DNA from: Acidobacteriota bacterium
GTDB taxonomy: Bacteria; Acidobacteriota; Terriglobia; 20CM-2-55-15
Direction of reading: 5' to 3'
Length of the DNA stretch: 50,515 nt
Assembly: GCA_022821265.1 (NCBI GenBank)
Contig: JAJEDW010000200.1
Span: 1 to 50,515, forward strand
In this document: piece after piece, positions 3,538-48,079 of the stretch
Layout: each line of letters starts with the position of its first letter
How positions within the stretch are numbered: position 1 is the first letter of the stretch
Program-made: the position numbers and the translations under genes
Notes under the pieces: model-generated
The model's input: only the letters and a program-made list of their open reading frames with translations
Database searches by the model: none
Told to the model about the DNA's origin: nothing

Positions 3538-5472
3538 TCAATGGGGGCTCGTGCGGTTCGACGAATGGATGCCGTCGCCGAGCAGCTCGTCCGCGCGCGG
3601 GCCGGTGTAGCGCAACACGTGCAGCCCGGTGTGGTTGTCTCCCACGTAGATCAGGCCGTTGTGGAGGTCGGGGTAGGACATGACGTCCCCCCACGGCACC
3701 GGGCGCGCATGGCCGACTTCCCTCGGGTTGAAGGGATTCGAGATGTCGATCGCGCGGACTCCCTGCCCGAGCCAGTTGACGAAGACCAGGTTCTCCAGCA
3801 CGGTCGGGTTGTGCGCGTGCATCATCGGACGGATCGCCGCGCCGGGCGGCACCGGCTGCGCCAGGCAGTTCTCGACCATGCTGTCCGACATCGCGTGGGC
3901 GCCGATCATCATGGGAGCGATTTCGGACTCGACGTTGATGATCCGCAGGCTCCGCTCCGGGCACGGACCGAAAGGCCATTCCTCGGTAATGACGACGTAG
4001 GCCGGCCGGCCATCCGCGTTCGCGCCGGACAGCGAGGGCCGGTTCGGAACCGGGACGGCGCTGTGGACGCTGACGGACGCGACGAACGGCGGCGCGAAGT
4101 CGAACCGGGACCGCTCCTCGAGCCGCGTGTACCGGACCAGCTTCCGGACGTCGGACATGTCCGAGGCGAGCATGGCCAGCAACCCGGGGTCGGAGTTGAG
4201 AACCGGATGCACGCAATCGTTCGCCGCCTCGGGGAGCCGCGCCACGTCGACCACGCCGCCCACCTCGCCGTCGACCCACACGTTGGTCGAGTGCGTATTG
4301 CAGACGCCGCCTCCCGCGAGGTCCGCGTTCGTGTTGTTCGCGACGAAGGCGGTGTTCAGGATGTACATCCCGGCCGTGCCGCCCGCCGCGTAGAACCGCT
4401 CGCCGTCGTCCGACATCGCACCGGAATGCAGGTCGTTGCCCTGGGACGGTTGCGAAGCGCCCGGGCGGCCCCATTGATCGGTCAGGTGGCTGTAGTCGGG
4501 AAACCGCCCGTCCGAGAACAGGCCGGTCGCGTCGGGCGCCTCGTCGCGCACGGGGCCGCCGACCTCTTCCAGCGTGAACGACGCCAGCAACAGCGGCTCC
4601 TCGAGCACCGCGCCGGTCGACTCATCCGTGACGGCCGTGAACACAAGGTCCTCTTCCTGCGAGCCGTACGTCTGGGAAATGACGACGAAGCGGTTGGGAT
4701 TGTCCGGATCGTGCCATAGATAGAACTCGTGCGCGAGGACGCCGGCCGCCGTCGCGCCCTCGTCGACCGGAAGACACGTCTCGGGATCCAGCGTGTACAC
4801 GATGACGTCGCCGCCGGTGCCCGTGGCCGCGGAGCGCACCATGAGCATGCGTTCGTCGCCGCCGGTCGTCGTGTAGCCGTAGGGACGGAGCTCCCGGTCG
4901 CGCACGGCGGTGTCGCGCGTGACGGTCATCAACTGGGGCATCGTGCCGACTTCGACGGGCGGTTCGTTCTCCGGATCGTCCTGGATCCGGAAGATCCGGA
5001 CGTCGCGGGTGACGCCGGGACCGGTCGTGTTCGTCGAGTTGCTCCGCCCCCAATAGAGGCACTGGCCCGCGATGCCGAGGCCGGTCGAACCCCACCCGGT
5101 CGGGAACCCGTCCAGGTCGCCGCCCGACCACTCGCCGGTCTCCGGATCCAGCTCGGACGGCGCCGTCGGCAGCCAGTGCAGCCACTCGAAGTTGGCGAAC
5201 AGCCCGAGCCGCTCGGCCGCCACGAACGCCCCGGCGTGCGCGTCCTCCGGCGAGGAGGTCGGATCCAGGTTCCCGGACGCGTCCAGGCGGCCGCCCGGCA
5301 ACTCCGCGAAGGGAATATCGAACGTGTCGAAGGTGACCGGAACACAGCGGACCGGACCTTCGAGTTCGGGGTCCTCGCACAGTTCGGGAGCGCCCCCCGT
5401 GTCCTGACCGGGCGCGGCCACGGCCGCGCCGGCCAACAGTGAGAGCGCCAGAATCATCCCTTGCAATCGCAT
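3538..5472 (-). CDS. Secreted beta-propeller protein, LVIVD-repeat-like
   Basis: Start trimmed to ATG 5472..5470, preceded by GGAGG, with signal peptide MRLQGMILALSLLAGAAVAAP. C-terminal segments such as GVRAIDISNPFNPREVG and LIYVGDNHTGLHVLRY resemble LVIVD repeats. The upstream part of the 996-aa ORF is antisense to 5587..6615. Confidence 0.65.
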   Translation of the reverse strand: MRLQGMILALSLLAGAAVAAPGQDTGGAPELCEDPELEGPVRCVPVTFDTFDIPFAELPGGRLDASGNLDPTSSPEDAHAGAFVAAERLGLFANFEWLHWLPTAPSELDPETGEWSGGDLDGFPTGWGSTGLGIAGQCLYWGRSNSTNTTGPGVTRDVRIFRIQDDPENEPPVEVGTMPQLMTVTRDTAVRDRELRPYGYTTTGGDERMLMVRSAATGTGGDVIVYTLDPETCLPVDEGATAAGVLAHEFYLWHDPDNPNRFVVISQTYGSQEEDLVFTAVTDESTGAVLEEPLLLASFTLEEVGGPVRDEAPDATGLFSDGRFPDYSHLTDQWGRPGASQPSQGNDLHSGAMSDDGERFYAAGGTAGMYILNTAFVANNTNADLAGGGVCNTHSTNVWVDGEVGGVVDVARLPEAANDCVHPVLNSDPGLLAMLASDMSDVRKLVRYTRLEERSRFDFAPPFVASVSVHSAVPVPNRPSLSGANADGRPAYVVITEEWPFGPCPERSLRIINVESEIAPMMIGAHAMSDSMVENCLAQPVPPGAAIRPMMHAHNPTVLENLVFVNWLGQGVRAIDISNPFNPREVGHARPVPWGDVMSYPDLHNGLIYVGDNHTGLHVLRYTGPRADELLGDGIHSSNRTSPH

Positions 5473-5586
5473 GGTCCAACCTCCTCGTCCGACCTTGATC
5501 ATACGCCCGGCCGTCAATCGACGCGTCGACCATCGTATCGTTGACGTCCCGGTCAAGCTGTAGTCTGATGGGCCGTGAGGTCCGGA

Positions 5587-6615
5587 ATGAAACACGCAAT
5601 CACGCTGGCGGGAATCCTCGCCGTCACGGCGCCGGCCGCCGGCCACCACAGCGACGCCGCGCTGGACATGAACGCGGTCGTGACCTTCGAGGGAACCGTC
5701 ACCGAGTATACGATGCGCAATCCCCACGCCTATTTCACGGTGGAAACCGTGAATGCGGCGGGAGAACGCGTCGAATGGACGGTGCAGATGGCCTCGGCGC
5801 TGACGATCGGGCGCCGGGGCTGGGCGCGCGATTCGCTGTCGTTCGGTGACCGCGTGAGCGTGGGGGTCCGGCCGGCGCGTGACGGACGGCCGTACGGATT
5901 GCTGGTGTCGGTCGAACGCGACGGACGGCCCGTGGTCGCGCCGCCCGGCGCCGGCCGGGGCGCCGGCCAGACGGCGCCCGCCGCACCGACGCTGGAAGGC
6001 ATCTGGATCGTCGATCGGGCGAGCCTGGGTCCGGATTATCCCGGTGGACTGGATCAACTGATGATCCGCGAACTGCGCTTGACCGAGCGGGGCCGGATCG
6101 CCGAAGCCGAGTACAGCCAGAACGACCCGGACAATCCCGAGCTGGCGTGCATGACGAAGCCGACGCCGGGAGGGATCATCTACACGGACCTCTACCCGAT
6201 GCAGATCGAGTTCGTCGAGGACGAGGACATCGTCATGATCCGCAGCCAGTACTTCGACCAGGAGCGCACGGTGTACATGGACGGACGCGGGCATCCCGAC
6301 GCCGACCAGCGGACGCACGAAGGACACTCGACCGGCCGTTGGGAAGGCGACGTGCTCGTCGTCGACACCGCGAACTTCGCGGACAACCGCTCGCCCTATC
6401 AGAACGGCATTCCGTCGGGCGCCCGGAAGCACGTCGTCGAACGCTACCGGTTGCACGAGGACGGCCGGCGCCTGACGGTCACCTTCACCCTGGAAGATCC
6501 GGATTACATCGCCGAACCGATGACGCACACGCGGGACCTGCTGTATGCGCCGAACCGGGACATGACGCCTTTCGACTGCGACCCCGAGGCGACCCGGCGC
6601 TATCTTCCGCGGTGA
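5587..6615 (+). CDS. Secreted fusion protein: DUF6152-like domain plus WEGDVLVV-motif domain (paralog C)
   Basis: Signal peptide MKHAITLAGILAVTAPAAG is followed by HHSDAAL and MRNPHAYFTVE (small domain). Then come ACMTKPTPGG, GRWEGDVLVVDTANF, LEDPDY and FDCDPE (large domain). Confidence 0.8.
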   Translation: MKHAITLAGILAVTAPAAGHHSDAALDMNAVVTFEGTVTEYTMRNPHAYFTVETVNAAGERVEWTVQMASALTIGRRGWARDSLSFGDRVSVGVRPARDGRPYGLLVSVERDGRPVVAPPGAGRGAGQTAPAAPTLEGIWIVDRASLGPDYPGGLDQLMIRELRLTERGRIAEAEYSQNDPDNPELACMTKPTPGGIIYTDLYPMQIEFVEDEDIVMIRSQYFDQERTVYMDGRGHPDADQRTHEGHSTGRWEGDVLVVDTANFADNRSPYQNGIPSGARKHVVERYRLHEDGRRLTVTFTLEDPDYIAEPMTHTRDLLYAPNRDMTPFDCDPEATRRYLPR

Positions 6616-6628
6616 GGCCGCGGCCGGC

Positions 6629-7009
6629 CTATTCCGATTCCAGAACGACGACGGCCGCCGAAACGCGCCGGTCGTGGGTCAGTGAGACGTGGAACCGGCC
6701 CGCGCCCAGCTCGAGCGCCCGTTCGAGCGCGCCGCCGTGGAGAACGAGCCGGGGTTGTCCCGACCCCAGACGTTCGACCTCGACGTCCTTCCAGCGGACG
6801 CCGCGGGCCCAACCGGTCCCCAGGGCCTTGAACGCGGCTTCCTTTGCCGCGAATCTTGCGGCAAAGTGAATGGGAGGATGCGCGGCGCCCTCGCAGTAGC
6901 CGGCTTCGCCGGGCGTGAAGATGCGCGAGACGAACCGGCGGGGAAAGCGTTCCAGCGAGCGCGCGATCCGCTCGTTCTCGATCACGTCGATGCCGATTCC
7001 GATGACCAC
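6629..7009 (-). CDS. acpS: Holo-[acyl-carrier-protein] synthase
   Basis: MVIGIGIDVIENERI start, FTPGE, and FAAKEAAFKALG are typical of AcpS; length is 126 aa. Confidence 0.9.
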   Translation of the reverse strand: MVIGIGIDVIENERIARSLERFPRRFVSRIFTPGEAGYCEGAAHPPIHFAARFAAKEAAFKALGTGWARGVRWKDVEVERLGSGQPRLVLHGGALERALELGAGRFHVSLTHDRRVSAAVVVLESE

Positions 7010-7056
7010 CCGCGGCTCCGCTCCGTTTGCCGGATGACGCCCCTCAGGAAGCAGCC

Positions 7057-7767
7057 ATGTTACACACGCGCACGCAATCCGACATCACGTTTCTGGCGGC
7101 GCCGGTCCTGGAGGCCGTTCCGCGCGTCGTGCACGCGTTCTCGACGCGGCGCCCGAGCCCGGACGACGGCTTCGCGGCCGTCGCGGGCATGGAGGGATGG
7201 CCGACGTTCCCACTCCGGCAAATCCACTCCGACCGCGTTCACTGGGTGGCCGGGGAGCGGCTCCCGGACACGGCCCCGGACGGAGACGCCGCGGCGACCG
7301 CGCTTCCAGGCGTGGCCCTCTCGGTGAGGACCGCCGACTGCGCGCCCGTGCTGATCGCCGATCGACGAGGGAGGGTCGTGGCCGCCGCCCACGCCGGCTG
7401 GCGCGGCGCCGCGGCCGGCGTGGTTCGACGGACCGTCGAGCAAGTGGTTTCCGAAGGCGGCGTGGAGGCCCGCGACCTCGCGGCGGCCATCGGGCCGCAT
7501 ATCGGCGTCTGCTGCATGGAGGTCGGCGACGACGTGGCCGATCGCTTCGCGCAGCCCGGAATCGTCCTCCGGCGGCCCGATTGGCCCAAGCCCCATCTGG
7601 ACCTCGGCGCGGCCAATCGCGCCCAGCTCGCCGACGCCGGCGTACCGCCGGAACGCGTCGAAGTCTCGACGCTGTGCACCCGATGCCGTCCCGACCTGTT
7701 TCATTCCTACCGCCGTGACGGCGAGAAGGCGGGCCGCATGCTGTCCCTCATCGGACTGGCGCCGTGA
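7057..7767 (+). CDS. pgeF: YfiH/PgeF family laccase-domain protein (purine nucleoside phosphorylase-like)
   Basis: Motifs HAFSTRR, TADCAPVLIAD, AHAGWRG and CTRC..LFHSYRRDG. ATG at 7057 is preceded by AGGAAG; an alternative TTG start is at 7027. Confidence 0.85.
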   Translation: MLHTRTQSDITFLAAPVLEAVPRVVHAFSTRRPSPDDGFAAVAGMEGWPTFPLRQIHSDRVHWVAGERLPDTAPDGDAAATALPGVALSVRTADCAPVLIADRRGRVVAAAHAGWRGAAAGVVRRTVEQVVSEGGVEARDLAAAIGPHIGVCCMEVGDDVADRFAQPGIVLRRPDWPKPHLDLGAANRAQLADAGVPPERVEVSTLCTRCRPDLFHSYRRDGEKAGRMLSLIGLAP

Positions 7768-8429
7768 ACGGAGGGTCCCGCCAGGCGGAACGCGAGGCCA
7801 TGGTGGCGCGCCAGATCCGATCGCGCGGCGTCCGCAACGCGGCCGTGCTCGCCGCCGTCCTCCGTGTTCCGCGGCACGAGTTCGTTCCCGACGAAGCCCG
7901 GGCGGACGCCTACGCCGACGGGCCGCTGCCGATCGGCGACGGCCAGACCATCTCGCAACCGTACGTCGTCGCCCGGATGACGGAAATGCTCGACCCGCGG
8001 CCCGGGCGCCGCGTCCTGGAAATCGGGACCGGATCCGGCTACCAGACCGCCGTCCTGGCCGAGCTCGGCGGCGAGGTGTTTTCGATCGAGGCCCGGAAGC
8101 CGCTGCTCGACGCGGCGCGGCAGACGCTGGAGCGCCTCGGCTACGGCCGAATCCGGTTCCGGCACGGGGACGGCGGCGCGGGGTGGCCCGAACACGCCCC
8201 GTTCGACCGCATCGTGATCACGGCGTGCGCCAGGGAGATTCCTCGCTCACTCGCCGTCCAGTTGGCGGCCCCGGGCCGGCTGGTCGGTCCGGTCGGAGAG
8301 CCGGGCGGCGAACAGCGGCTCGTGACCCTGACCCGAAACCGGAACGGGGAAATGGACATCGTCGAGGGCCTTCCGGTACGATTCGTGATGATGACCGCAT
8401 GGAAAGGGGGCAGCGAATCGACCCGATGA
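7764..8429 (+). CDS. pcm: Protein-L-isoaspartate O-methyltransferase
   Basis: Motifs TISQPYVVARMTEML, VLEIGTGSGYQTAVLAEL and FDRIVITA. GTGA start/stop overlap with pgeF. Confidence 0.9.
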   Translation: MNGGSRQAEREAMVARQIRSRGVRNAAVLAAVLRVPRHEFVPDEARADAYADGPLPIGDGQTISQPYVVARMTEMLDPRPGRRVLEIGTGSGYQTAVLAELGGEVFSIEARKPLLDAARQTLERLGYGRIRFRHGDGGAGWPEHAPFDRIVITACAREIPRSLAVQLAAPGRLVGPVGEPGGEQRLVTLTRNRNGEMDIVEGLPVRFVMMTAWKGGSESTR

Positions 8430-8938
8430 GATCGACGACGAAACTCTTGACGGCGGCGCTGGTGGCCACAGCCTGGCCGGCCATGGCCCAGGACGCGCCG
8501 CCCGCGCCCAATATCTCCGGCATGGCCGTCCAGGGCATGATGGTCGACCTGAACAACTTCAGGGGCGACAAGAACATCCTGGTCGTGTTCTACCGGATGC
8601 ACAACTGACCGTTCTGCCAGGCGCAGCTCGGCGAGCTGCAAGCGAACTACGAAGAGATACGGAACCTGGACGCGGAAGTCGTCGCCCTGAGCGCGGACAT
8701 CCCGGCCCAGGCCACGGTGACCGCCACGGAGTTGGGGCTCACCTATCCGATCCTGTCGGACTCGCCCCGCCGCTTCATCCGCGATTACGGCGTCCTGCAT
8801 CCGCAGGAAGGGATCGCGCGGCCCTCGTTGTTCATTCTGAACCGCGACGGGGCCCTGGAATGGAGCTACATCGGGGTGAACGCGTCGGATCGGCCTCCGA
8901 TCGACACGGTTCTGGACGAACTCCGGGCCCTGCAGTAG
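8426..8938 (+). CDS. Periplasmic AhpC/TSA-family (Prx-like) thiol:disulfide oxidoreductase, predicted selenoprotein (UGA 8606..8608 read as Sec in a U-P-F-C motif)
   Basis: ATGA overlap with the pcm stop. Signal peptide MRSTTKLLTAALVATAWPAMA. ILVVFYRMHN-TGA-PFCQAQLGEL continues in frame into the track ORF 8717..8938 (LTYPILSD, SLFILNRDG). The TGA sits where this family carries the first Cys of WCPxC. Confidence 0.75.
8623..8639 (+). promoter_or_regulatory. Candidate bacterial SECIS hairpin (GCAGCUC-GGC-GAGCUGC)
   Basis: Perfect 7-bp stem with a G-rich apical loop centred 22-24 nt 3' of the UGA at 8606..8608. Confidence 0.5.
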
Positions 8939-8989
8939 CGGCATCCCGCGGCCGGGCGGGCGCCTGTTCGGCGTGCTACCATCCGTTTC

Positions 8990-9400
8990 ATGGGTGGACG
9001 CAATCCCTACTTCGATGAACTGGAGGGCATCGCCCCTCCGACGCGGAAGTACACCGTCACGTTCCTGCCGATGAACGTCACCGTCGAGGTGGACCCGGAC
9101 GCGCTGCCGTACGGGGAGACGGGGCTGCCCGGCAGCATTCTCGACATCGCGCTGAAGCACGGTATCGACGTCGACCACGCCTGCGGGGGCGTCAGCGCGT
9201 GCTCCACCTGCCATTGCATCGTCGACGAGGGCGAGAACACGCTTTCCGAGATGACCGACGGCGAGGAGGACCAGCTCGCCTACGCTCCCGGCCTCACGCC
9301 GTCGAGCCGCCTCTCGTGCCAGTCGGTGGCCGACGGGTCGTCCGACCTGGTCGTCACCATCCCGGACTGGAACCGCAACGCCGTGCGGGAGTCCCACTGA
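8990..9400 (+). CDS. 2Fe-2S ferredoxin (adrenodoxin/Fdx-like)
   Basis: Motif ACGGVSACSTCHC ... LSCQ has the Cys spacing typical of vertebrate-type 2Fe-2S ferredoxins. Confidence 0.8.
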   Translation: MGGRNPYFDELEGIAPPTRKYTVTFLPMNVTVEVDPDALPYGETGLPGSILDIALKHGIDVDHACGGVSACSTCHCIVDEGENTLSEMTDGEEDQLAYAPGLTPSSRLSCQSVADGSSDLVVTIPDWNRNAVRESH

Positions 9401-9412
9401 ACCGCGCGCTGA

Positions 9413-9436
9413 GCCGGCGCCCGGCGGTTTTGTGTT
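9413..9436 (+). terminator. Candidate intrinsic terminator after the ferredoxin gene
   Basis: GCCGG-CGC-CCGGC hairpin followed by GGTTTTGTGTT. Confidence 0.4.
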
Positions 9437-9473
9437 GACCCCGTCTCGGCCGATGATCGAGACTACCGCCATC

Positions 9474-10496
9474 ATGACAACCTACAGGTGGTGGCTCACA
9501 GCGGTCGCGGCGGCGTGTTGCGCCGCAACGTCCGCCGCCGGAGGAGCGCAGGACGCCGGGGGGGCGGCCGGGACGACCGACACCGTCCCGGACGCTTCCG
9601 GAACGATCGAAAACGCACCGGACGAGGCCCTCGACCTGTTCAGTCTGCAGGTCGAGGTGCCGCTGGTCAACGTGACCGCGACGGTCCTGGACCTGTCGGG
9701 CGAGTACGTGGAAGGCCTGGCCGACGACAACTTCACGATCTTCGAGGATGGCGTGGAGCAGCAGATCGCGTTCTTCTCGCACGACGTGAACGTGCCCGTC
9801 AGCCTGGGAATCCTCGTCGACGTCAGCGGCAGCATGCGCTACAAGATCCAGCAGTCCCTGCAGACGGCGCGCGAGGTGGCCATGGCGCTGTCGCCCGACG
9901 ACGAGGTCTTCATCGTTACGTTCGCCGAAGATTCCAACGTGTTGACCGACTTCACCCCGACCGGACCGGACATTCAGGAGGTCTTCCGCGGCATCCGCAC
10001 CGGCGGCGACACCCACCAGTTCGACGCGATCGGCCTGGCGCTCCGCATGATGGAGAACGCGCGGCACCAGAAGAAAGTGCTGCTGCTGCTGACCGACGGT
10101 TTCGACACGCGGAGCCGGCTCCGGATCGAGGACGTGGACGAGCTGCTGAAGGAATCGGAGGTGCTGGTCTACGCGATCGGCATCGACGACGACGACGAGG
10201 ATCCCGAGGTGGCCCGGCGCACGCGGTATCACGTGTACCACTACATGCTCGCGCGGTTGACGGACGTGACCGGGGGCCGCGCGTTCCGGATCTACACGGG
10301 CCGGCGCTACGCGCTCCAGAGCCTGGCCGAAATATTGCTGCAGGAACTGCACCAGCAATACACGCTCAGCTACTACCCGACGAACCCCGCCCTGGACCAG
10401 AGCTGGCGCGAGATCCGCGTGCGCCTGGACAACCCGGCCGCGACCGTGCGCCACCGTACGGGGTACTACGCCGACGAGGCCGTCGGAGTCGAGTGA
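9474..10496 (+). CDS. VWA domain protein (VWFA-related, Acidobacteria-type)
   Basis: N-terminal signal, MIDAS-like GILVDVSGSM, LLLTDGFDTRS, and C-terminal YTLSYYPTN ... RHRTGYY. Alternative starts are at 9432 and 9453. Confidence 0.75.
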   Translation: MTTYRWWLTAVAAACCAATSAAGGAQDAGGAAGTTDTVPDASGTIENAPDEALDLFSLQVEVPLVNVTATVLDLSGEYVEGLADDNFTIFEDGVEQQIAFFSHDVNVPVSLGILVDVSGSMRYKIQQSLQTAREVAMALSPDDEVFIVTFAEDSNVLTDFTPTGPDIQEVFRGIRTGGDTHQFDAIGLALRMMENARHQKKVLLLLTDGFDTRSRLRIEDVDELLKESEVLVYAIGIDDDDEDPEVARRTRYHVYHYMLARLTDVTGGRAFRIYTGRRYALQSLAEILLQELHQQYTLSYYPTNPALDQSWREIRVRLDNPAATVRHRTGYYADEAVGVE

Positions 10497-10553
10497 GCGC
10501 CGGATCGTGGACGTCCATCAACGGCGGCCGCGAACGGCCGTCGCCAAACACCG

Positions 10554-10802
10554 ATGCTCATTGTCACCCGAAAGAAGGACGACCGGCTGATCATCGGAAA
10601 CGATATCGAGATACACGTCCTCCGGATCGGCCGCGACAACGTTCGCCTCGGGATCAAGGCGCCCCGCGACGTCTCCATTTACAGGCACGAGATCTACGAA
10701 CAATCCACGGAGGCGAACGTCGCCGAGAGCGCGCCTCCCGCCACGGAGCCGAACGGGACCGAGACGAATCCCGGGGGCGAGAACTCGGAACGGCAACCGT
10801 AG
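10554..10802 (+). CDS. csrA: Carbon storage regulator CsrA
   Basis: MLIVTRKKDDRLIIGNDIEIHVLRIGRDNVRLGIKAPRDVSIYRHEIY is a near-canonical CsrA core. Confidence 0.9.
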   Translation: MLIVTRKKDDRLIIGNDIEIHVLRIGRDNVRLGIKAPRDVSIYRHEIYEQSTEANVAESAPPATEPNGTETNPGGENSERQP

Positions 10803-16789: not shown

Positions 16790-19645
16790 CTATGAAACAG
16801 CCTCGTCCGAGGGCAGGGCGCGGGCCAGCGCCTCGGCCGGATGCCACGGCCGGCGCCCGGTCGCGTCGGCGATCTGCTGGCGGCAGGACACGCCCGGGGT
16901 GACGATGGGCGTTTCCGGCGACGCGTCCAGCGCCGGAAGAAGCCGGCGGCGTCCGATGGCGAGCGACAGGTCGTAGTGCTCGCTCTCGTATCCGAACGAC
17001 CCGGCCATGCCGCAGCACCCCGAGTCGATTTCGTCCACTTCGTAGGCGGCCCCGAGAACATTCTTGAGGGGCCCGCTTCCGACGAGAGCTTTTTCGTGAC
17101 AATGCGTGTGGAGCAACGCCCGGGGCCGGGCCGGCCGATACCGCACCTTCCAGCGGCCGGCGCGCGTCTCGCGGTCGATGAACTCCTCGAGCAGGAACGT
17201 CGAGGCGGCCACTTCGCGCACCTCCGGTCCGGACACGAGGTCCGCGTACTCGTCGCGGAACGTCAACATGCAACTCGGTTCACACCCGACGATGGCGTAG
17301 CCCCGGGACACCCACGGATGCAGCGCCCCGACGTTGGAACGCGCCATCGCGCGCGCCGTCTCCGCCAGGCCCTTCGATATCGGCGGGCGGCCGCAGCAGA
17401 CGCGATCGGCGAGCCGCACCTCGTAGCCGGCGGCTTCCAGCAACGCGGTGGCCGCCCGCCCGATCTCGGGGTGGTTGTAGTTGACGAACGTGTCGTGGAA
17501 GAGCACGACGCGCCCCGACCCGCCGCCCGCTTTGCGCGGGCGCCGTTCGCGGAACCAGGATTCGAAGGTCTGCCCGGCGATCGGCGGCAGCGCACGGCGC
17601 GCGTCGATCCCGAGCCAGCGGTCCATCCAGCGCCTCAGGACCGGATGCGCCATCAGGCGGTTCGACAGGCCCGGGGCCCGGGACGCCATCCGGCTCAGCC
17701 GGTGGATGTGTCCGAACACCAGCGAGCGGAGCGGCGTGCCGTTCGCGTCGTTGTATTGCGCCAGGAACTCGTACTTCAACTTGGCCATGTCGACCGCCGA
17801 CGGGCATTCGGCCTTGCAGGCCTTGCATTCCAGGCACAGATCCAGCGCGTCGTGGAGGCTTCGCCCGGTCCACGCCTCCGGGGGCAGCTTGCCCGACAGG
17901 ACCTCGCGCATCAGGTTGGCGCGTCCGCGAGTGGAATGGGCCTCGTCGCGCGTCGCCATGTAGGAGGGGCACATCGTGCCGTTGTTCACCTTGCGGCACA
18001 CCGCCATGCCGTTGCACATCTCGACGGCGGCCGCCAGACCGCCCTCCCGGGAAAAGTCGTAGTGCGTCTTCACGTGAACGGTCTCGTAGCGCTCGCCGAA
18101 CCGCAGGTTGGCGTCCATGGGCGGCGCGTCGACGATCTTTCCGGGATTCATCCGGCAATCCGGATCGAACGCGCGCTTGACCTGTTGGAACGCCCGGTAG
18201 ACGGCGGTTCCGAACAGCGTCTCGTTCAGGTGGCTCCGCGCGAGCCCGTCCCCGTGCTCGCCGCTCATGGCGCCCCCGAACTCCATGACCAGCTCCGCGA
18301 TCTCCGTGGTCATGTCCTTCATCTTCCGGATTTCGGACGGCCGCTTCGTGTCGATCAGAGGCCGGATGTGGAGGCACCCCACGCTGGCGTGGCCGTAGTA
18401 ACCGGCGCTGGTGTCGTACTTGCGGATGACGTCGCGGAACCGGGTGAAGAATTCCGGAAGCCGTTCGGGGAGCACGGCGCAGTCCTCCACGAACGCGATC
18501 GGCTTGCGCTCCCCGCGCGTTCCCAGCAACAGGCCGAGCCCGGCCTTTCTGAGCTTCCACACCCGCTCCTGACCCGGGCCGTCGAGCGCCCGGGGATAGG
18601 CGTAGCCGAGTCCCGCCTTCCGGAGCGCCGCCTCCAGCCCGTCCAGCTTCGCCGTCAACTCCGCCTCGCCGTCGCCGTAGAACTCGACCAGCAGGATGGC
18701 GCCGGGCCGGCCCTCGATGAACCCGATCTCGCGCGAGAATTCCAGGGAGCCGCGCGCCAGATCGAGCACCATGTCGTCGACGAGCTCGATGGCGGAGGGC
18801 CCGGACGGCAGGATGACCTCGCTGGCGCGGATCGCGTCCACGATGTCCTCGAAGTGGACGGTCATCAGCGCGGTGGCGCGCGGACGCGGCTCGATGCGGA
18901 CCTTGGCGCGGTGCACCATCGCCAGAGTGCCTTCCGAACCCACGATCAGCTTGGCCAGGTTGAACTTTCCGTTGCGAACGAACTCGTCGAGGTTGTAGCC
19001 GGTCACCCGACGCATCAACCGCGGGAAGCGCGCCTCGATCTCGCCGCGATCGAGATCGACGATCTCGGCGATCCGGCCTTCCAGTCCGCCGCGTCGGCGC
19101 GCCTCCTCGAAGCCGATTTCCTTGAACAGGCGCCGCTCGCCGGATGCGAGGACGGCGTCGACCTCCAGGACGTGGTCGATCGTCTTGCCGTAGAAGATCG
19201 AATGCGAACCGGCGGAGTTGTTGCCGATCATCCCGCCGATGGTCGCGCGGTTGGCCGTGGACGTGTCCGGACCGAACAGGCGGCCCATCGGTTTCAGGTG
19301 CAGGTTGAACTGCTCCTGGACGACGCCGGGCTCGACCCAGGCCCATCCTTCCTCGGTGTTGACCTCGAGAACGCGGTTCAGGTACTTGGAGCCGTCGATG
19401 ACGACGGCGTGCCCCACGGACTGCCCCGCCAGGCTCGTGCCGCCGCCGCGCGGCAGGACCGGCGCGTCGAATTCCGCGGCCGCCTCCATCGCGGCGAACA
19501 CGTCTTCGGGCGTGCGGGGAACGACCACGCCGATGGGCATGATCTCGTAGATGCTGGCGTCGGTGCTGTAGAGCAGGCGCGACGATTCGTCGAAGCGCAC
19601 CTCGCCCGCAACCCGTTCCTTCAACACGGCTTCCAGGTCGTGCAT
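16790..19645 (-). CDS. FAD-binding plus Fe-S (GlcD-GlcF fusion, YdiJ-like) 2-hydroxyacid dehydrogenase
   Basis: N-terminal FAD PCMH domain (PRGGGTSLAGQSVG), central CxxCxxC clusters (CLECKACKAECP), C-terminal CCG domains (CCGMAGSFG). An alternative GTG start is at 19663. Confidence 0.85.
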   Translation of the reverse strand: MHDLEAVLKERVAGEVRFDESSRLLYSTDASIYEIMPIGVVVPRTPEDVFAAMEAAAEFDAPVLPRGGGTSLAGQSVGHAVVIDGSKYLNRVLEVNTEEGWAWVEPGVVQEQFNLHLKPMGRLFGPDTSTANRATIGGMIGNNSAGSHSIFYGKTIDHVLEVDAVLASGERRLFKEIGFEEARRRGGLEGRIAEIVDLDRGEIEARFPRLMRRVTGYNLDEFVRNGKFNLAKLIVGSEGTLAMVHRAKVRIEPRPRATALMTVHFEDIVDAIRASEVILPSGPSAIELVDDMVLDLARGSLEFSREIGFIEGRPGAILLVEFYGDGEAELTAKLDGLEAALRKAGLGYAYPRALDGPGQERVWKLRKAGLGLLLGTRGERKPIAFVEDCAVLPERLPEFFTRFRDVIRKYDTSAGYYGHASVGCLHIRPLIDTKRPSEIRKMKDMTTEIAELVMEFGGAMSGEHGDGLARSHLNETLFGTAVYRAFQQVKRAFDPDCRMNPGKIVDAPPMDANLRFGERYETVHVKTHYDFSREGGLAAAVEMCNGMAVCRKVNNGTMCPSYMATRDEAHSTRGRANLMREVLSGKLPPEAWTGRSLHDALDLCLECKACKAECPSAVDMAKLKYEFLAQYNDANGTPLRSLVFGHIHRLSRMASRAPGLSNRLMAHPVLRRWMDRWLGIDARRALPPIAGQTFESWFRERRPRKAGGGSGRVVLFHDTFVNYNHPEIGRAATALLEAAGYEVRLADRVCCGRPPISKGLAETARAMARSNVGALHPWVSRGYAIVGCEPSCMLTFRDEYADLVSGPEVREVAASTFLLEEFIDRETRAGRWKVRYRPARPRALLHTHCHEKALVGSGPLKNVLGAAYEVDEIDSGCCGMAGSFGYESEHYDLSLAIGRRRLLPALDASPETPIVTPGVSCRQQIADATGRRPWHPAEALARALPSDEAVS

Positions 19646-19653
19646 CAGTCGGG

Positions 19654-19662
19654 AGTGTAGCA
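19654..19662 (-). promoter_or_regulatory. Candidate extended -10 element TGCTACACT, 8 nt upstream of ATG 19645 (leaderless or near-leaderless)
   Basis: The minus strand reads CCGGGTGCTACACTCccgactgATG. The same 15-mer CCGGGTGCTACACTC recurs at 27393..27407. Confidence 0.4.
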
Positions 19663-19684
19663 CCCGGAACCGGGACGCCGGGGA

Positions 19685-36748: not shown

Positions 36749-37228
36749 TCAGTCGTCGAGTTTCTTCAATTCCTCGAACAGCACGGAATTCTTGGGCTGG
36801 TCGCCGATCTCGTGCACGTCGACATAGCGGATCACGCCCTGCTTGTCGATGATGAAAATCGCGCGTTCGGCGAAGCCTTCCCGGCGCAGGACGTTGTATT
36901 GGAGGGCCACGTGTCCGTGCGGAAAGAAATCGCTCAACAGCGGATAGGACAGCCCGCCGAGCGATTCCGCCCACGCCTTGTTGCTGAAGATCGAATCGAT
37001 GCTGATGCCCATGACCTGGGCATCGTACCGGTCGAACTCGGAGAGATCCTCCTCGTACGCCGGCATCTGCAGGGTTCAGACCGGAGTGAACGCAACGGGG
37101 TAGAAGGCGATGACGACGTTCTTCTTCCCCTTGAAGCTGGACAGCGTGACTTCCGTGTCCAGGTGCGAGTTGAGCGTGAAGTCGGGCGCCTCGTCGCCCA
37201 CCTTGAGCTCGTTCGTCGGGTTCGGCAT
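36749..37228 (-). CDS. AhpE-like peroxiredoxin, predicted selenoprotein (UGA 37078..37076 read as Sec at the peroxidatic position: AFYPVAFTPV-U-T)
   Basis: ATG 37228..37226 is preceded by AGAGGAG. 54 sense codons (MPNPTNELKVGDEAPDFTLNS...VVIAFYPVAFTPV) run in frame through the TGA into the track ORF 36749..37066 (ISIDS, YPLLSDFFPHG, IFIIDKQG). Confidence 0.8.
37019..37061 (-). promoter_or_regulatory. Possible SECIS region (GGCGUAC...GUAC-GAU-GCC outer stem, GGAGG-AUC-UCUCC apex)
   Basis: The stem-loop apex lies about 29-31 nt 3' of the UGA. It is less canonical than the other two hairpins. Confidence 0.3.
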
Positions 37229-44090: not shown

Positions 44091-44624
44091 ATGACACGCC
44101 GCATAATGACGGGACTGGCGTCGCTGGCCCTGCTGGGCCTGGGGGCGCCCCGCGCCGTTCCGGCCGCGGCCGACGTCGACCCCGAGCAGGCCCTGGCCCT
44201 GACCGCGGCCATCGACGCCCGCCTCGGGGCGATCGTTCCGACCGTGTTCCAGGAAGCCAAGGCGACGTATCTGGAAGACTACGGCCTGGTCGTCACGGCC
44301 GAGGTGGCGCTGGCGCCGCCCCGCAACCCGTTCGTCGGGCCCGGCGATCCCGACTTGATCCGCAGCCAGAGCGTGGCGCGCCTGGACGCGCTCGAAGATG
44401 GCGCCGTCGAGGTGTTGGGCGAACAGGTGCCGGAGATCGACGGCCTGACGGCCGAGGAGCGGGTCACCCTGGTGATCTACCTGATCAACCCGAACCCGGT
44501 CGACCTGCCGGACCTGCCCGCGCAACTGGTGTTCGCGGTCCGGAAGAGCGACGCCGACGCGCTTCGCTCCGGGGCCCTGGACGATGCCGCCTTCCGCCAA
44601 CGCGTCAACATTCGGGAAGACTGA
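44091..44624 (+). CDS. Secreted hypothetical protein
   Basis: Signal peptide MTRRIMTGLASLALLGLGAPRAVPAAA. Ordinary composition. No family recognised. Confidence 0.55.
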   Translation: MTRRIMTGLASLALLGLGAPRAVPAAADVDPEQALALTAAIDARLGAIVPTVFQEAKATYLEDYGLVVTAEVALAPPRNPFVGPGDPDLIRSQSVARLDALEDGAVEVLGEQVPEIDGLTAEERVTLVIYLINPNPVDLPDLPAQLVFAVRKSDADALRSGALDDAAFRQRVNIRED

Positions 44625-44628
44625 AACC

Positions 44629-46320
44629 TTGAAGGCACTCCTGTCGACAGATCGGAAGCTCTTCGGAGAGGTGTTGCGCGACAAGGGCCTGATTGCCGAG
44701 GACGATCTCGCCAACGCGCTCGCGCTCCAGAAGGAAAGCGGCGACCGGCTGGGCAAGTTACTGGTCGACCTCGGTTTCGTCTCCCAAAGGGATGTGCTGG
44801 CCTGCCTGGGCGAACACCTCGGCGTCCCGGTGTTCACGGGCGACTACCCGGCCGTGCCGATCGAGGCCGACCGGCTGCCGCATCGCTTCCTGCGCGCAGC
44901 CCTGGCCCTCCCCGTACACATGGAAGGCGACGTCCTCGCGCTCGTGATGGCCGACCCGTTGGACACGGAGACCCGCTCCGCCATCGGCCAACGCACCGGG
45001 CTTCGACTCGACGTTCACCTGGCTTCCGAGGCCGCCATCTGCGATCACCTCGACCGCCTGTACGGCGCGGACGAGTCGGAAACGATGATCGAGACCCTGG
45101 GCGAGTCCATCGGCGAGGACGACATCGAGCAGCTTCGCGACCTCGCGTCCGAGGTTCCGGTCATTCGAATGGTCAACCTGATCATCTCGCGGGCCGTCGA
45201 GTCGCGGGCGAGCGACATCCACATCGAGCCGTTCGAGAAGGAGCTGCAACTGCGTTACCGCGTCGACGGCGTGCTGCAGAACGTCGATGCGCCGCCGAAT
45301 GCCATGAGGGCCGCCGTGATCTCGCGCATCAAGCTGATGGCGAAGCTCAACATCGCGGAACGCCGCCTTCCGCAGGACGGCCGGATCAAGCTGAAGGTCC
45401 TCGGGAAGGAGATCGACCTGCGCGTTTCGACGCTGCCCACCATGTACGGCGAAAGCGTGGTGATGCGAATACTGGACAAGTCCAGCACCGACCTGATCGA
45501 CCTCCGGCGCCTCGGGTTCCCCGCGGATCTGTACGACTCGATCTGCGCGATGACGTCCAAGCCCCACGGCATCTTCCTGGTGACCGGCCCCACTGGCAGC
45601 GGCAAGAGCACGACGCTCTACAGCGCGTTGAAGAGAATCAACATCCCCGACCGGAAGATCATCACGATCGAAGACCCCGTCGAGTACCAGATGGACGGCA
45701 TCAACCAGATCCAGGTCAACGCGCAGATCGGTCTGACCTTTTCGGCCGGGTTGCGGCACATCGTGCGGCAGGACCCGGACGTGATCATGGTCGGCGAGAT
45801 CCGCGACCTCGAAACGGCGGAGATCGCGATCCGGTCGGCGTTGACGGGGCACCTGGTGTTCAGCACGCTCCACACCAACGACGCGCCGAGCGCCGTCACG
45901 CGGCTGATCGACATGGGCGTCGAAGACTACCTGCTGGCGTCGTCGCTGATCGGCATTCTGGCGCAGCGCCTGGTGCGCGTGATCTGCTCGTCGTGCCGGA
46001 AACCCGAGTCCGCCGCCGCGGCCGCCATGCGGGACGCCGGGTTCCCGGTCGACGAAACGCGCGGCTCGGTCGAGGTGTACCGGGGGGCGGGTTGCGAAGC
46101 TTGCGCCTACACGGGGTTCGAAGGACGGCAGGGGATCTTCGAGCTGCTCGACGTGGACGACGCGATGCGCGGCGTCATCACCACGAGCCCGGATTCGAAC
46201 GTGCTCAAGTCCCAGGCCGAACGATCCGGGATGCGGCCCCTGCGCGACGACGGCTGGTCGAAGGTGCTGGCCGGCGTCACCACCCCCGACGAAATCCTCC
46301 GCGTCACCCAGGAGATGTAG
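44629..46320 (+). CDS. gspE: Type II secretion / type IV pilus assembly ATPase (GspE/PilB family)
   Basis: N-terminal MshEN-like domain (LGEVLRDKGLIAEDDLANAL...LGKLLVDLGFV), Walker A GPTGSGKST, GEIRD, and tetracysteine CSSC...CEAC. TTG start is proposed at 44629; the track start 44584 overlaps the upstream gene. Confidence 0.9.
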   Translation: MKALLSTDRKLFGEVLRDKGLIAEDDLANALALQKESGDRLGKLLVDLGFVSQRDVLACLGEHLGVPVFTGDYPAVPIEADRLPHRFLRAALALPVHMEGDVLALVMADPLDTETRSAIGQRTGLRLDVHLASEAAICDHLDRLYGADESETMIETLGESIGEDDIEQLRDLASEVPVIRMVNLIISRAVESRASDIHIEPFEKELQLRYRVDGVLQNVDAPPNAMRAAVISRIKLMAKLNIAERRLPQDGRIKLKVLGKEIDLRVSTLPTMYGESVVMRILDKSSTDLIDLRRLGFPADLYDSICAMTSKPHGIFLVTGPTGSGKSTTLYSALKRINIPDRKIITIEDPVEYQMDGINQIQVNAQIGLTFSAGLRHIVRQDPDVIMVGEIRDLETAEIAIRSALTGHLVFSTLHTNDAPSAVTRLIDMGVEDYLLASSLIGILAQRLVRVICSSCRKPESAAAAAMRDAGFPVDETRGSVEVYRGAGCEACAYTGFEGRQGIFELLDVDDAMRGVITTSPDSNVLKSQAERSGMRPLRDDGWSKVLAGVTTPDEILRVTQEM

Positions 46321-46333
46321 CCGGTCTGAAACG

Positions 46334-47545
46334 ATGGGCACGTTCGTCTACAAGGCCGTGAACCGCCAGGGGCAGCCCGCCGAAGGGCGCCTGGAGGCCG
46401 CCGATGCGCACGCGGCGTCGTTCAACCTGCAGACGATGGGGTTGATCCCGATATCGGTCGAGGCCCCGGCGCCCCGGCGGCGGCCGAACCTCTCCCGCTT
46501 CGGCATCCGGTGGGTGCGGCGCAGGGACATTCTTTTCTTCACCGAGGAGTTGTCGACGCTGGTCGGGGCCGGGCTCCCGCTGGACCGCAGCCTGAGCATC
46601 GCCGCCGAGTTGGCGTCCAATCCCGTGCTCGAGGACGTGATTCGCGACCTGCTGCAGCGGATCAAGGGGGGCGCCTCGCTCGCCGATGCGCTGGGGGCTC
46701 ATCCCCGCCACTTCTCGCCCCTCTACGTCAGCATGGTGCGCGCGGGCGAGGCGGGCGGCGTCCTGGACGTCATCCTGGAACGGCTGACCGGATTCGAACG
46801 GTCCTCCGACGAGCTGCGTTCGTACCTGACCTCGTCGCTCGTCTACCCGGCGTTGTTGACGCTGGTGGGGATGGGCTCGCTCGGGATCCTCTTCTACATG
46901 GTCATCCCGCGCTTCGCGACGATCTTCGAAGACATCGGGGCGGAGATCCCGCCGCTCACGATGACGCTGCTGGCCATGTCCTCGGCCGTCCGGTCCTATT
47001 GGTGGGTCGCCCTGCTGGCCGCGGCCGGCGTCGTTGTCGGCGCCCGCGCCTGGGTGCGGTCCTCGCGCGGCGGCCGGCAATGGGACGCCCTGCGGCTGCG
47101 GCTGCCCCTGATCGGTCCGACGCTGATCAAGATCGAGGTGTCGCGGTTCGCGCGCACGCTGGGAACCTTGCTGGCCAGCGCCGTGCCGTTGATCCTGGGC
47201 GTGCGCATCGTTCAGGACATCGCCCGCAACCGGATCGTTTCCGAGGCCATCGCCAAGATCGCCGACGGCGCCAAGCGCGGCGAGGGCGTGGCCCGGCCGA
47301 TGCAGGAAGCCGGCGTGTTTCCCGGGCTGGCGACGCACCTGGTGAGCATCGGCGAGGAGACCGGCCGTCTCGACACGATGCTTCTTCAACTGGCCGACGT
47401 CTACGAGAAAGACGTCCGGACGTCGGTGAAGGCGCTCACTTCCGTATTCGAGCCGGTTATCATTCTGATCATGGGAGTGCTGATCGGCATCGTCGTGTTG
47501 TCGATGCTGATGGCCATCTTCAGCATCAACGATATCGCCCTGTAG
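46334..47545 (+). CDS. gspF: Type II secretion system protein F (GspF/PilC family)
   Basis: Two T2SSF repeats (FTEELSTLVGAGLPL, FARTLGTLLASAVPL) and three TM segments. Confidence 0.9.
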   Translation: MGTFVYKAVNRQGQPAEGRLEAADAHAASFNLQTMGLIPISVEAPAPRRRPNLSRFGIRWVRRRDILFFTEELSTLVGAGLPLDRSLSIAAELASNPVLEDVIRDLLQRIKGGASLADALGAHPRHFSPLYVSMVRAGEAGGVLDVILERLTGFERSSDELRSYLTSSLVYPALLTLVGMGSLGILFYMVIPRFATIFEDIGAEIPPLTMTLLAMSSAVRSYWWVALLAAAGVVVGARAWVRSSRGGRQWDALRLRLPLIGPTLIKIEVSRFARTLGTLLASAVPLILGVRIVQDIARNRIVSEAIAKIADGAKRGEGVARPMQEAGVFPGLATHLVSIGEETGRLDTMLLQLADVYEKDVRTSVKALTSVFEPVIILIMGVLIGIVVLSMLMAIFSINDIAL

Positions 47546-47565
47546 CGGAGCCAGCGGAGAAACCG

Positions 47566-48012: not shown

Positions 48013-48079
48013 ACTTTTTCCCCCGTTCCCGCGTCTTTACCGTGTGGCCGGCCCATGAGCGCGGCCGAACGGTCCTGAA

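Follow-up and report, generated by a model that had tools for sequence, protein, structure and literature searches.

A peroxiredoxin-like gene of Acidobacteriota, split in two by annotation at a TGA that most likely encodes selenocysteine

Selenoprotein genes are easily broken up by annotation that takes every TGA for a stop. The gene at 8426..8938 of an acidobacterial window (the whole stretch of DNA analysed, 50.5 kb) is very likely such a case. As judged from its sequence, it is probably one gene for an exported thiol:disulfide oxidoreductase with a peroxiredoxin (Prx) fold and the active site U61-P-F-C64, in which UGA is most likely read as selenocysteine (Sec). Standard annotation breaks it into 8426..8608 and 8717..8938, and the probable reason is that the active-site TGA encodes Sec. 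The gene is an ordinary new member of a bacterial selenoprotein family, the Prx-like family, that has already been catalogued (PMC2398784 Table 2; PMC9312934; PMC13188914), and it leaves knowledge of the selenoprotein families and of Sec decoding unchanged. The features of the gene and its surroundings are collected in the table.

Table. Coordinates of the features of the predicted selenoprotein gene and of related genes in the window.
Feature	Position	Strand	Remarks
Predicted selenoprotein CDS, complete	8426..8938	+	170 codons plus stop; Sec is codon 61
In-frame TGA, predicted selenocysteine codon (U61)	8606..8608	+	Same column in 26/26 sequences; 113 homolog domains have the leading Cys of their CxxC here
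Redox motif U61-P-F-C64	8606..8617	+	In alignment to M. tuberculosis AhpE, C64 is the peroxidatic Cys and U61 the Prx Thr
SECIS-like hairpin	8623..8639	+	Stem 7 bp, GCAGCUC/GAGCUGC; apical loop GGC; -10.1 kcal/mol
Arg132 codon	8819..8821	+	Aligns with the conserved catalytic Prx Arg (AhpE R116); invariant in orthologs
Predicted Sec-type (SPase I) signal peptide, residues 1-21	8426..8488	+	By inspection and hydropathy only
ORF of the annotation track, GTG start, 73 aa	8717..8938	+	Artefactual C-terminal piece of the 8426..8938 gene; same frame
pcm, protein-L-isoaspartate O-methyltransferase	7764..8429	+	Upstream gene, ending in a TGA that overlaps the start of the selenoprotein gene
Second predicted selenoprotein gene, AhpE-type peroxiredoxin, TxxU	36749..37228	-	TGA at the peroxidatic Cys

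The reading frame opens with MRSTTKLLTAALVATAWPAMAQ, runs through ILVVFYRMHN to the TGA, continues as PFCQAQLGELQANYEEIRNLDAEVVALSAD and closes with the stop at 8936..8938. It agrees with the original prediction, which described an ORF that starts as ATGA over the stop of pcm, meets the TGA after ILVVFYRMHN and passes into the downstream ORF of the track, a redoxin gene being cut into two ORFs. The TGA that ends pcm does overlap the ATG at 8426, and the two pieces share one frame. Among the orthologs, divergence at the three codon positions amounts to 0.21/0.11/0.48 upstream of the TGA and to 0.28/0.22/0.54 downstream of it. Both flanks are under purifying selection at the protein level, and the gene contains neither frameshifts nor further stops.

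The TGA itself is conserved. It occupies the U61 column in all 26 orthologous sequences, which comprise the window, four metagenome contigs, 20 Acidobacteriota genomes and one Chloroflexota genome, and which share 28-96% protein identity. The same column alternates with Cys: a search of 1.84 billion representatives gave 148 aligned homolog domains, 113 of which carry the first Cys of CxxC there, usually in the context F-Y-R-G-x-W-C-P-x-C. Alignment to Cys homologs, the check that had been proposed, thus places the TGA at the N-terminal redox Cys, as predicted. Where the database entries P0001-3 show Trp at this position, the underlying codon is a TGA that was translated with code 4. Ten homologs that read WxxC were considered as further probable cases of TGA; P0102 and P0107 turned out to be W-CPxC with a one-residue insertion and P0072 a genuine TGG, and TGA was confirmed for P0041 and P0017 from a check of DNA and sequences. 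One relative, L107, has a genuine TGG in the U61 column.

Several explanations other than Sec insertion have to be weighed against these observations. If the TGA were a true stop, which is what the annotation track depicts, the products would be a secreted peptide of 60 residues and a separate C-terminal protein started at GTG 8717. This is hardly credible, as such a stop would sever a single thioredoxin/peroxiredoxin fold through its active site. The codons between the TGA and the GTG (+1 to +36) are conserved as protein, with a coding pattern of divergence (0.25/0.21/0.49) and with Cys64, which is invariant, and the helix QLxELQ among them, and the internal GTG is not kept as a start, the database fragments beginning at differing positions. 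The view that the two ORFs are the remnants of a pseudogene, or that an error of sequencing or assembly has turned TGC or TGG into TGA, draws on the facts that TGC, TGT and TGG are each one base change away from TGA, that standard gene callers split the gene and that one relative reads TGG; it is already effectively refuted by the recurrence of the TGA at one column in independent assemblies of such varied identity, by purifying selection on both sides of an otherwise intact frame and by the preserved gene order.

Recoding of the UGA to Cys or another residue by a suppressor tRNA, either an acidobacterial allo-tRNA (UCA anticodon) or a selC*-type tRNA-Sec-like tRNA-Cys, has precedents in the work of Mukai et al., according to which the allo-tRNAs of Acidobacteria may be missense or nonsense suppressors and the selC* tRNA-Cys of delta-proteobacteria may read UGA (PMC5389517). 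The relative with TGG at the U61 column would fit such recoding, as would the failure to find Sec machinery: ARAGORN detects no tRNA, hence no tRNA-Sec, either in the window or across 22 loci, SelA, SelB and SelD are not found by Pfam scans of 20 large ORFs of the window, and tblastn with E. coli SelA, SelB and SelD (used as probes only) gives no match over 411 kb of related loci. The window and these loci are a small fraction of each genome, and the absence of selA, selB, selD and tRNA-Sec from them is uninformative. Suppressor recoding is nevertheless very unlikely. Of the 48 genes in the window, 27 end normally with TGA, so the genetic code is not reassigned and general suppression would conflict with the main stop codon; the 22 loci have no tRNA of any kind near the gene. 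Moreover, only four TGAs in the window have 50 stop-free codons and coding signal on both sides. Two are ordinary gene junctions and two lie at redox-active positions of AhpC/TSA-family proteins, a pattern that exceeds chance. Each of the latter two sits exactly on a redox Cys position, in the known pattern of Sec/Cys alternation, and each protein family is a catalogued family of selenoproteins. The other member of this pair, the gene on the reverse strand, shares its TGA with the 29 orthologs nearest to it, distant relatives having TGC or TGT instead. The presence of this gene makes it very probable that the source organism decodes Sec. Selenoproteins are on record for Acidobacteria (PMC1794560 Table 2).

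Evidence for Sec insertion is also sought in the RNA downstream of the UGA. The hairpin GCAGCTC-GGC-GAGCTGC starts 14 nt past the TGA, with a distance of 21 nt from UGA to loop. Among the four bSECIS criteria given in PMC13188914 (Fig. 2 legend) are an apical loop of 3-9 nt with an upper stem of 4-16 bp, a distance of 16-37 nt from UGA to apical loop and a minimum free energy of -7.5 kcal/mol or lower. The hairpin falls within all four, with its loop of 3 nt, stem of 7 bp, spacing of 21 nt and -10.1 kcal/mol for the hairpin alone. They are passed by 25 of the 26 orthologous sequences, compared with 5% of other in-frame positions in the same genes, and the spacing is 20-25 nt in all 26. The apical loop, GGC in the window, is GGN or A-G-U/G-U-G in orthologs. 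The hairpin seems to be under synonymous constraint: across 23 orthologs the wobble sites of the stem are frozen and those of the loop are free, the loop Gly using all four codons, and the only three of 58 conserved degenerate codons with zero synonymous variation all lie within the stem. One stem pair varies as G-C, G-U and A-U, and the distant TGA homologs L025 and L106 fold hairpins of a different kind at this position. Covariation in the stem is weak: four of the seven base pairs are constant throughout, the variation is too slight for a decisive outcome, and 40 of 500 shuffles reach an equally high score.

The original prediction was accurate as to the hairpin itself (its coordinates, 7 bp, GGC loop and position 14 nt downstream) and implied more evidential weight than it carries. 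CAGCTC and GAGCTG are reverse complements, so the need to encode the peptide QLxELQ largely produces the hairpin; it is weaker evidence for that reason and because a homolog with a Cys codon has an identical one. Such an identical 7-bp hairpin is found in one of four Cys-codon homologs, and two of the four pass the bSECIS criteria. An equally good bSECIS-like hairpin occurs at 6% of random positions in the window, and by itself the hairpin is only modestly unusual. The local fold around the TGA, computed from the single sequence, does not exceed shuffled sequences in stability (z = -0.11), and thermodynamic stability by itself was therefore dropped as an argument. A scan of the whole window against Rfam at gathering thresholds gave no match, which says only that no family of the library reached its threshold. 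A rather doubtful idea is that the QLxELQ palindrome CAGCTC/GAGCTG, at about 21 nt from the codon for the leading CxxC Cys, forms a 'latent SECIS' already present in some Cys homologs. Such a pre-adaptation would allow a single TGC-to-TGA change to give a working selenoprotein and would explain why several distinct subfamilies have TGA in this column.

The read-through product matches the Pfam family AhpC-TSA (pfam00578) at 2.2e-26, scoring 92.6 bits where the cutoff is 26. The match spans residues 26-146 and thereby crosses the TGA and covers both halves of the gene, in line with the AhpC/TSA-like redoxin that had been predicted; Redoxin matches at 4.3e-17. The scaffold is peroxiredoxin-like rather than TlpA/ResA-like. 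A structure model of the ortholog P0001, of moderate confidence only (pLDDT 68), places the UxxC motif at the junction of strand 50-56 and helix 62-73, and the best 50 fold neighbours found by Foldseek are all peroxiredoxins. A TlpA/ResA-like scaffold was rejected on the same Foldseek result and on a score of 35.3 bits for the ResA model, against a cutoff of 170. TlpA, ResA and CcmG (W-C-x-x-C) do resemble the predicted protein: they too are exported, adopt a Trx-like fold, match the same Pfam models and cap the first helix with a motif of the CxxC type. The similarity is weak, however, at 3.5e-6 for ResA in the PDB compared with 1e-16 for AhpE.

Mycobacterium tuberculosis AhpE (Rv2238c), a 1-Cys peroxiredoxin, is, among solved structures, the relative closest in sequence and has the same fold (TM about 0.65-0.71). 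Cys64, invariant in the orthologs, stands opposite its peroxidatic Cys45, and Arg132 opposite its catalytic Arg116, so that these two residues of a canonical Prx are present. The remainder of the canonical P-x3-T/S-x2-C motif is absent: the AhpE sequence P-L-A-F-T-G-I-C is replaced by R-M-H-N-U-P-F-C, with Arg57 in place of the Pro and Sec61 at the position of the Thr. AhpE is cytoplasmic, in contrast with the predicted export of the acidobacterial protein. A selenoprotein that acts as a periplasmic peroxidase, in which peroxide would convert Sec61 to a selenenic acid, Cys64 would resolve it and Arg132 would assist, is possible and the less probable function. It is favoured by the nearest solved relatives and fold neighbours that are all peroxiredoxins and by the invariance of Cys64, at the peroxidatic position, and of Arg132. 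The loss of the Prx Pro and Thr argues against it, as do the CxxC, here a thioredoxin-type arrangement, and the label thiol:disulfide oxidoreductase that the Prx-like UxxC family bears by prediction only (PMC9312934).

The preferred assignment, a thiol:disulfide oxidoreductase, follows the description of that known family (pfam00578, UxxC/UxxU; reference WP_010940744.1 from Geobacter; 'Prx-like 1' of the GOS survey), with which the gene was compared. The in-frame UGA supplies the first residue of U61-P-F-C64, aligned with the CxxC Cys, in keeping with the family motif. The shared features are an AhpC/TSA domain, a Sec that comes first in a UxxC replacing the TxxC of Prx, abundant CxxC homologs and a bSECIS-type hairpin closely downstream (PMC1088965, PMC2398784, PMC9312934, PMC13188914). 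The present group differs in being centred on Acidobacteriota, in its conserved signal peptide and pgeF-pcm-X-fer2 neighbourhood, and in the local motif F-Y-R-M-H-N-U-P-F-C, which has no Trp ahead of the Sec. SelL, described as a Prx-like protein (PMC2398784), likewise has Sec in an xx-spaced motif at the same position of a Prx-like fold; it contains UxxU, whereas the acidobacterial motif is UxxC. The top NCBIfam match, NF040769 ('SelL-related redox protein'), reaches 7e-15 and 55.1 bits over residues 29-123 only, far below its cutoff of 120. Sec-containing Prx (TxxU) belong to the same Pfam family and are represented in the window by the second gene. Their Sec replaces the peroxidatic Cys (T-x-x-U), whereas that of U61-P-F-C64 lies three residues earlier and the Cys of the peroxidatic position is retained.

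The N-terminus has the parts of a signal peptide, namely an n-region with R2 and K6, the h-region LLTAALVATAW and the c-region PAMA. Cleavage is predicted after A-M-A, before Q22, and a twin-arginine motif is absent. The signal peptide was part of the original prediction, and an equivalent N-terminus is kept in all 25 Acidobacteriota orthologs. The further suggestion that export of a Sec-containing redoxin through the Sec pathway deserves remark did not hold up. Insertion of selenocysteine takes place while the protein is being translated, and signal peptides or lipoboxes are found in Cys homologs of the family too, which makes such export unremarkable.

For Sec insertion, SelB dependence, export, substrate and redox partner, we infer the following course. 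SelB, recruited by the stem-loop whose apical loop lies 21 nt past the UGA at 8606, would bring in Sec-tRNA(Sec), and the UGA would most likely be decoded as selenocysteine. The full-length pre-protein would be exported unfolded via the Sec translocon and lose its signal peptide of 21 residues, leaving a mature form of about 16 kDa with Q22 as its first residue. Once in the periplasm, Sec61, exposed where it caps the N-terminus of the first helix, may act as the attacking nucleophile and cycle with Cys64 through a selenenylsulfide. The substrates of the pair might be envelope proteins, with disulfides or sulfenic acids to be reduced, or else peroxides.

The gene is misannotated in public data, where it is found cut into two pieces, reduced to a stub of its C-terminal part, or complete but with a Trp that code-4 translation has wrongly introduced. 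As this affects at least 26 assemblies, the acidobacterial selenoproteome is probably under-counted. Soil Acidobacteriota (Terriglobia/Solibacteraceae lineages) keep this predicted exported Sec redox enzyme in a housekeeping cluster, pgeF-pcm-X-fer2. The gene order acpS / pgeF-pcm-redoxin-fer2-VWA is kept across loci, the pcm ortholog of locus L004 matches PF01135, and the ortholog L005 sits in OZ253554.1, a complete genome of this lineage. Two more complete chromosomes, OZ253536.1 and OZ252023.1, and the near-identical MAG JAJEEE01 also carry the gene. The overlap of the pcm stop with the start of the selenoprotein gene makes co-transcription probable in the window. Among the orthologs, an 'ATGA' at the start is mostly Met followed by Lys or Arg, and overlap with an upstream stop is not implied by it.

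The gene layout put forward in the original prediction, with the overlap on pcm, the in-frame TGA, the annotated C-terminal ORF in the same frame and the hairpin, matches the sequence exactly. Protein-level selection acts across the entire redoxin frame, including the stretch from the TGA to the GTG of the annotated ORF, as judged from mean pairwise nucleotide divergence at codon positions 1/2/3 of 0.21/0.11/0.48 5' of the TGA, 0.28/0.22/0.54 3' of the TGA, and 0.25/0.21/0.49 between the TGA and the GTG. The frame is most plausibly translated as a single protein; neither a pseudogene or sequencing error nor a pair of separate products is tenable given the divergence pattern and the conservation of the TGA. 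The genetic code is not reassigned, because TGA is the normal stop in 27 of the 48 window genes.

Coordinates of the two TGA-containing genes and associated features in the window
Feature	Position	Strand	Detail
pcm ORF	7764..8429	+	terminal TGA overlaps ATG 8426
Redoxin frame	8426 to stop 8936..8938	+	begins MRSTTKLLTAALVATAWPAMAQDAPPAPN, reaches ILVVFYRMHN, then TGA
In-frame TGA	8606..8608	+	followed by PFCQAQLGELQANYEEIRNLDAEVVALSAD onward to stop 8936..8938
Annotated ORF, 73 aa, GTG start	8717..8938	+	contained within redoxin frame
Hairpin GCAGCTC-GGC-GAGCTGC	8623..8639	+	14 nt 3' of TGA
Second TGA gene, AhpE-type peroxiredoxin	36749..37228	-	TGA 37076..37078, context VIAFYPVAFTPV*TLQ

Conservation of the TGA was examined among orthologs. 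A word-indexed protein search returned five C-terminal fragments and three full-length homologs (P0001-P0003) with Trp recorded at the TGA column, which is TGA at the DNA level (loci L001-L003). On the metagenome contig L004, the gene is split in the same way and has the same neighbours. Scanning a single genome from each species added 21 loci, all with TGA at the homologous column, consisting of 20 from Acidobacteriota (Terriglobia, Solibacteraceae, Sulfopaludibacter) and one from Anaerolineales that is only 28% identical. The protein of Acidobacteria bacterium p16x34bins.10 (L008) is 96% identical to the window redoxin, and the organism itself is probably a near relative of the source. Public metagenome calls for P0001, P0002, P0003, P0017 and P0041 (loci L001-L003, L106, L108) give full-length proteins with Trp at the selenocysteine (Sec) position, evidently as genetic code 4, in which TGA is Trp, was applied to short contigs. 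Such translation is a systematic artefact that conceals selenoproteins as 'W' variants.

That the TGA replaces the N-terminal redox Cys of a W-C-P-x-C motif, as originally proposed, is borne out by a profile search against 1.84 billion representative proteins: among the best 150 of 9109 matches, 113 of 148 aligned domains have the first Cys of CxxC at the column, and the usual motif is F-Y-R-G-x-W-C-P-x-C. A subset of 'W' entries was re-examined at the DNA or sequence level. The 'W' is TGA in P0041 and P0017, both from other subfamilies, while P0102 and P0107 are truly W-C-P-x-C, a one-residue insertion having misled the column read-out. A genuine TGG is present in P0072 (Logan SRR24198227 contig, L107 1636..1638; context R-S-A-D-W-W-P-F-C), which keeps the downstream hairpin; the TGG may have arisen recently from TGA, mark an inactive variant or be a sequencing error. 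Together, the read-out and the DNA checks show that TGA and Cys codons alternate at the column, the classical Sec/Cys signature.

Both Pfam AhpC-TSA (2.2e-26, residues 26-146) and Redoxin (4.3e-17) match the 170-residue read-through product across the TGA. The closest solved relative is the 1-Cys peroxiredoxin AhpE of M. tuberculosis (1e-16). In the AhpE alignment, the Pro and Thr of P-x3-T-x2-C correspond to Arg57 and the TGA column (U61), respectively, the peroxidatic Cys45 to Cys64, and the catalytic Arg116 to Arg132; lacking this Pro and Thr, the redoxin is not a canonical peroxiredoxin. A structure model of the ortholog P0001 (pLDDT 68, pTM 0.65) places residue 61 between strand 50-56 and helix 62-73, the CxxC position of the thioredoxin fold, and a Foldseek comparison of the model with the PDB gives only peroxiredoxins among the top 50 neighbours (TM about 0.6-0.7). 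The redoxin is thus a peroxiredoxin scaffold bearing a thioredoxin-type U-x-x-C motif. A TlpA/ResA-type identity was rejected, as the solved relative and these neighbours are peroxiredoxins. The redoxin falls below the cutoff of the NCBIfam 'SelL-related redox protein' model (55 versus 120 bits).

'Prx-like thiol:disulfide oxidoreductase' selenoproteins are defined operationally by pfam00578 plus UxxC or UxxU (PMC9312934; PMC13188914), and 'Prx-like 1' of the GOS survey comprises 225 selenoproteins and 2,740 Cys homologs (PMC2398784). With pfam00578 and UxxC, the redoxin appears to be a new, exported, Acidobacteriota-centred member of an already known selenoprotein family, and the main value of the finding is annotation correction.

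Screening the window for further TGAs embedded in coding signal revealed a second gene (AhpE-type peroxiredoxin, 1.4e-30), the well-known TxxU Sec-peroxiredoxin. Its TGA lies exactly at the peroxidatic Cys (P-V-A-F-T-P-V-U), and it has an ATG at 37228 with an RBS and a long stem-loop 3' of the TGA (-26.1 kcal/mol, z = -1.9). Standard ORF calling splits this gene and leaves the C-terminal ORF 36749..37066. The 29 metagenomic orthologs closest to it (about 55-79% identity) all have TGA, with TGC or TGT in more distant relatives; the 60 nt 3' of the codon average -19.9 kcal/mol in TGA genes versus -12.0 in Cys genes. Since two independent conserved selenoprotein-type genes lie on one 50-kb stretch, the genome very likely decodes Sec. 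Acidobacteria are listed with selenoproteins in Table 2 of PMC1794560. No tRNA was found in the window or in 22 loci, no Rfam match in the window, no SelA, SelB or SelD among 20 large window genes, and no match for Sec machinery by tblastn of 411 kb with approximate E. coli queries; covering only a small part of any genome, these negatives do not count against Sec decoding. The chief mechanistic rival, reading of the UGA by an unusual suppressor tRNA such as an acidobacterial allo-tRNA or selC*-type tRNA-Cys (PMC5389517), is considered very improbable.

The Fig. 2 legend of PMC13188914 describes a bacterial SECIS (bSECIS) with 3-9 nt in the apical loop, 4-16 bp in the upper stem, a G within the first two loop positions, a UGA-to-loop distance of 16-37 nt and an MFE no higher than -7.5 kcal/mol. 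The window hairpin, with a 7-bp stem, GGC loop, 21-nt spacing and -10.1 kcal/mol, agrees throughout, as do 25 of 26 orthologs; by comparison, 5% of the other in-frame positions in these genes agree, and 14% of randomly chosen positions in the GC-rich window do (6% at -10 kcal/mol or lower). The strongest RNA-level evidence comes from synonymous sites: only 3 of 58 conserved degenerate codons are invariant across the 23 distinct orthologs, and these lie in the stem (Ala GCG, Gln CAG, Glu GAG), all four codons are in use for the loop Gly, and third-position entropy reaches its minimum for the gene in the 7-codon window that starts at the hairpin. In the distant homologs L025 and L106, the equivalent place is occupied by different hairpins, both with AGUU loops.

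Much of the hairpin follows from the peptide Q-L-x-E-L-Q itself: CAGCTC and GAGCTG, which encode it, are reverse complements. Among four Cys-codon homologs with this peptide, two fit the bSECIS model, stem wobble sites vary (CTC, GAA, CAA, GCC), and one has the identical 7-bp hairpin: L110 (ENA ERZ25039545 contig_38679; P0095, TGT codon, QLGELQ) carries GCAGCUC-GGU-GAGCUGC at the same offset as TGA genes, so the peptide motif alone encodes the palindrome. Formal covariation is weak, as 40 of 500 shuffles score as high and four stem pairs never vary; one pair varies (G-C 17, G-U 6, A-U 2). The hairpin of the original prediction therefore stands as a perfect structure that is compatible with a SECIS and seemingly kept by the TGA clade, yet it is not confined to TGA genes and shows no extra stability over shuffles (z = -0.11). 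QLxELQ is found in three of four independent TGA subfamilies versus about 20% of CxxC homologs. That the palindrome acts as a latent SECIS easing Cys-to-Sec switches in the Prx-like family is rather doubtful, and is the sole idea here deemed worth following up.

The predicted signal peptide has an equivalent in all 25 Acidobacteriota orthologs, consisting of a short basic n-region, a hydrophobic core of 10-14 residues and an A-x-A-type c-region, with no twin-arginine motif among them; the Chloroflexota homolog lacks a signal peptide. Export by the Sec pathway, originally singled out as noteworthy, needs no special explanation: Cys homologs likewise bear signal peptides or lipoboxes, and passage of an unfolded chain through the Sec translocon is unremarkable because selenocysteine is inserted during translation. 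In the proposed mechanism, UGA 8606 would be recoded SelB-dependently to insert Sec61, and export of the pre-protein would be followed by cleavage after Ala21. Exposed Sec61 would then serve as the nucleophile in the periplasm, cycling with Cys64 via a selenenylsulfide, and could reduce a disulfide/sulfenate or a peroxide. A peroxidase role, to which the retained peroxidatic-position Cys and Prx Arg lend some weight, is possible but on the unlikely side.

The gene order acpS (-) / pgeF (Cu-oxidase_4)-pcm-selenoprotein-2Fe-2S ferredoxin (fer2)-VWA-domain protein (-csrA) is kept across Acidobacteriota loci (window 6629..10802; L004-L024). Overlapping stop/start codons at both the pgeF/pcm and pcm/selenoprotein junctions suggest co-transcription with pcm; the pgeF-pcm neighbourhood offers no clear clue to the substrate. 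Elsewhere in the window, a 996-aa ORF (3538..6528, -) overlaps a 346-aa ORF (5575..6615, +), and the translation of 3538..5499 (-) has no Pfam match at 1e-5. Some bacteria have GlpC-type Fe-S oxidoreductases that are selenoproteins; in the window, a 957-aa GlcD/GlpC-like fusion of FAD-linked oxidase, 4Fe-4S dicluster and CCG cysteine-rich domains (16790..19663, -) contains no visible in-frame TGA. A type IV pilus / type II secretion cluster (44584..49977, +), with a T2SSE ATPase bearing an MshEN domain, a T2SSF platform protein and a PilN-like protein, appears unrelated to the redoxin.
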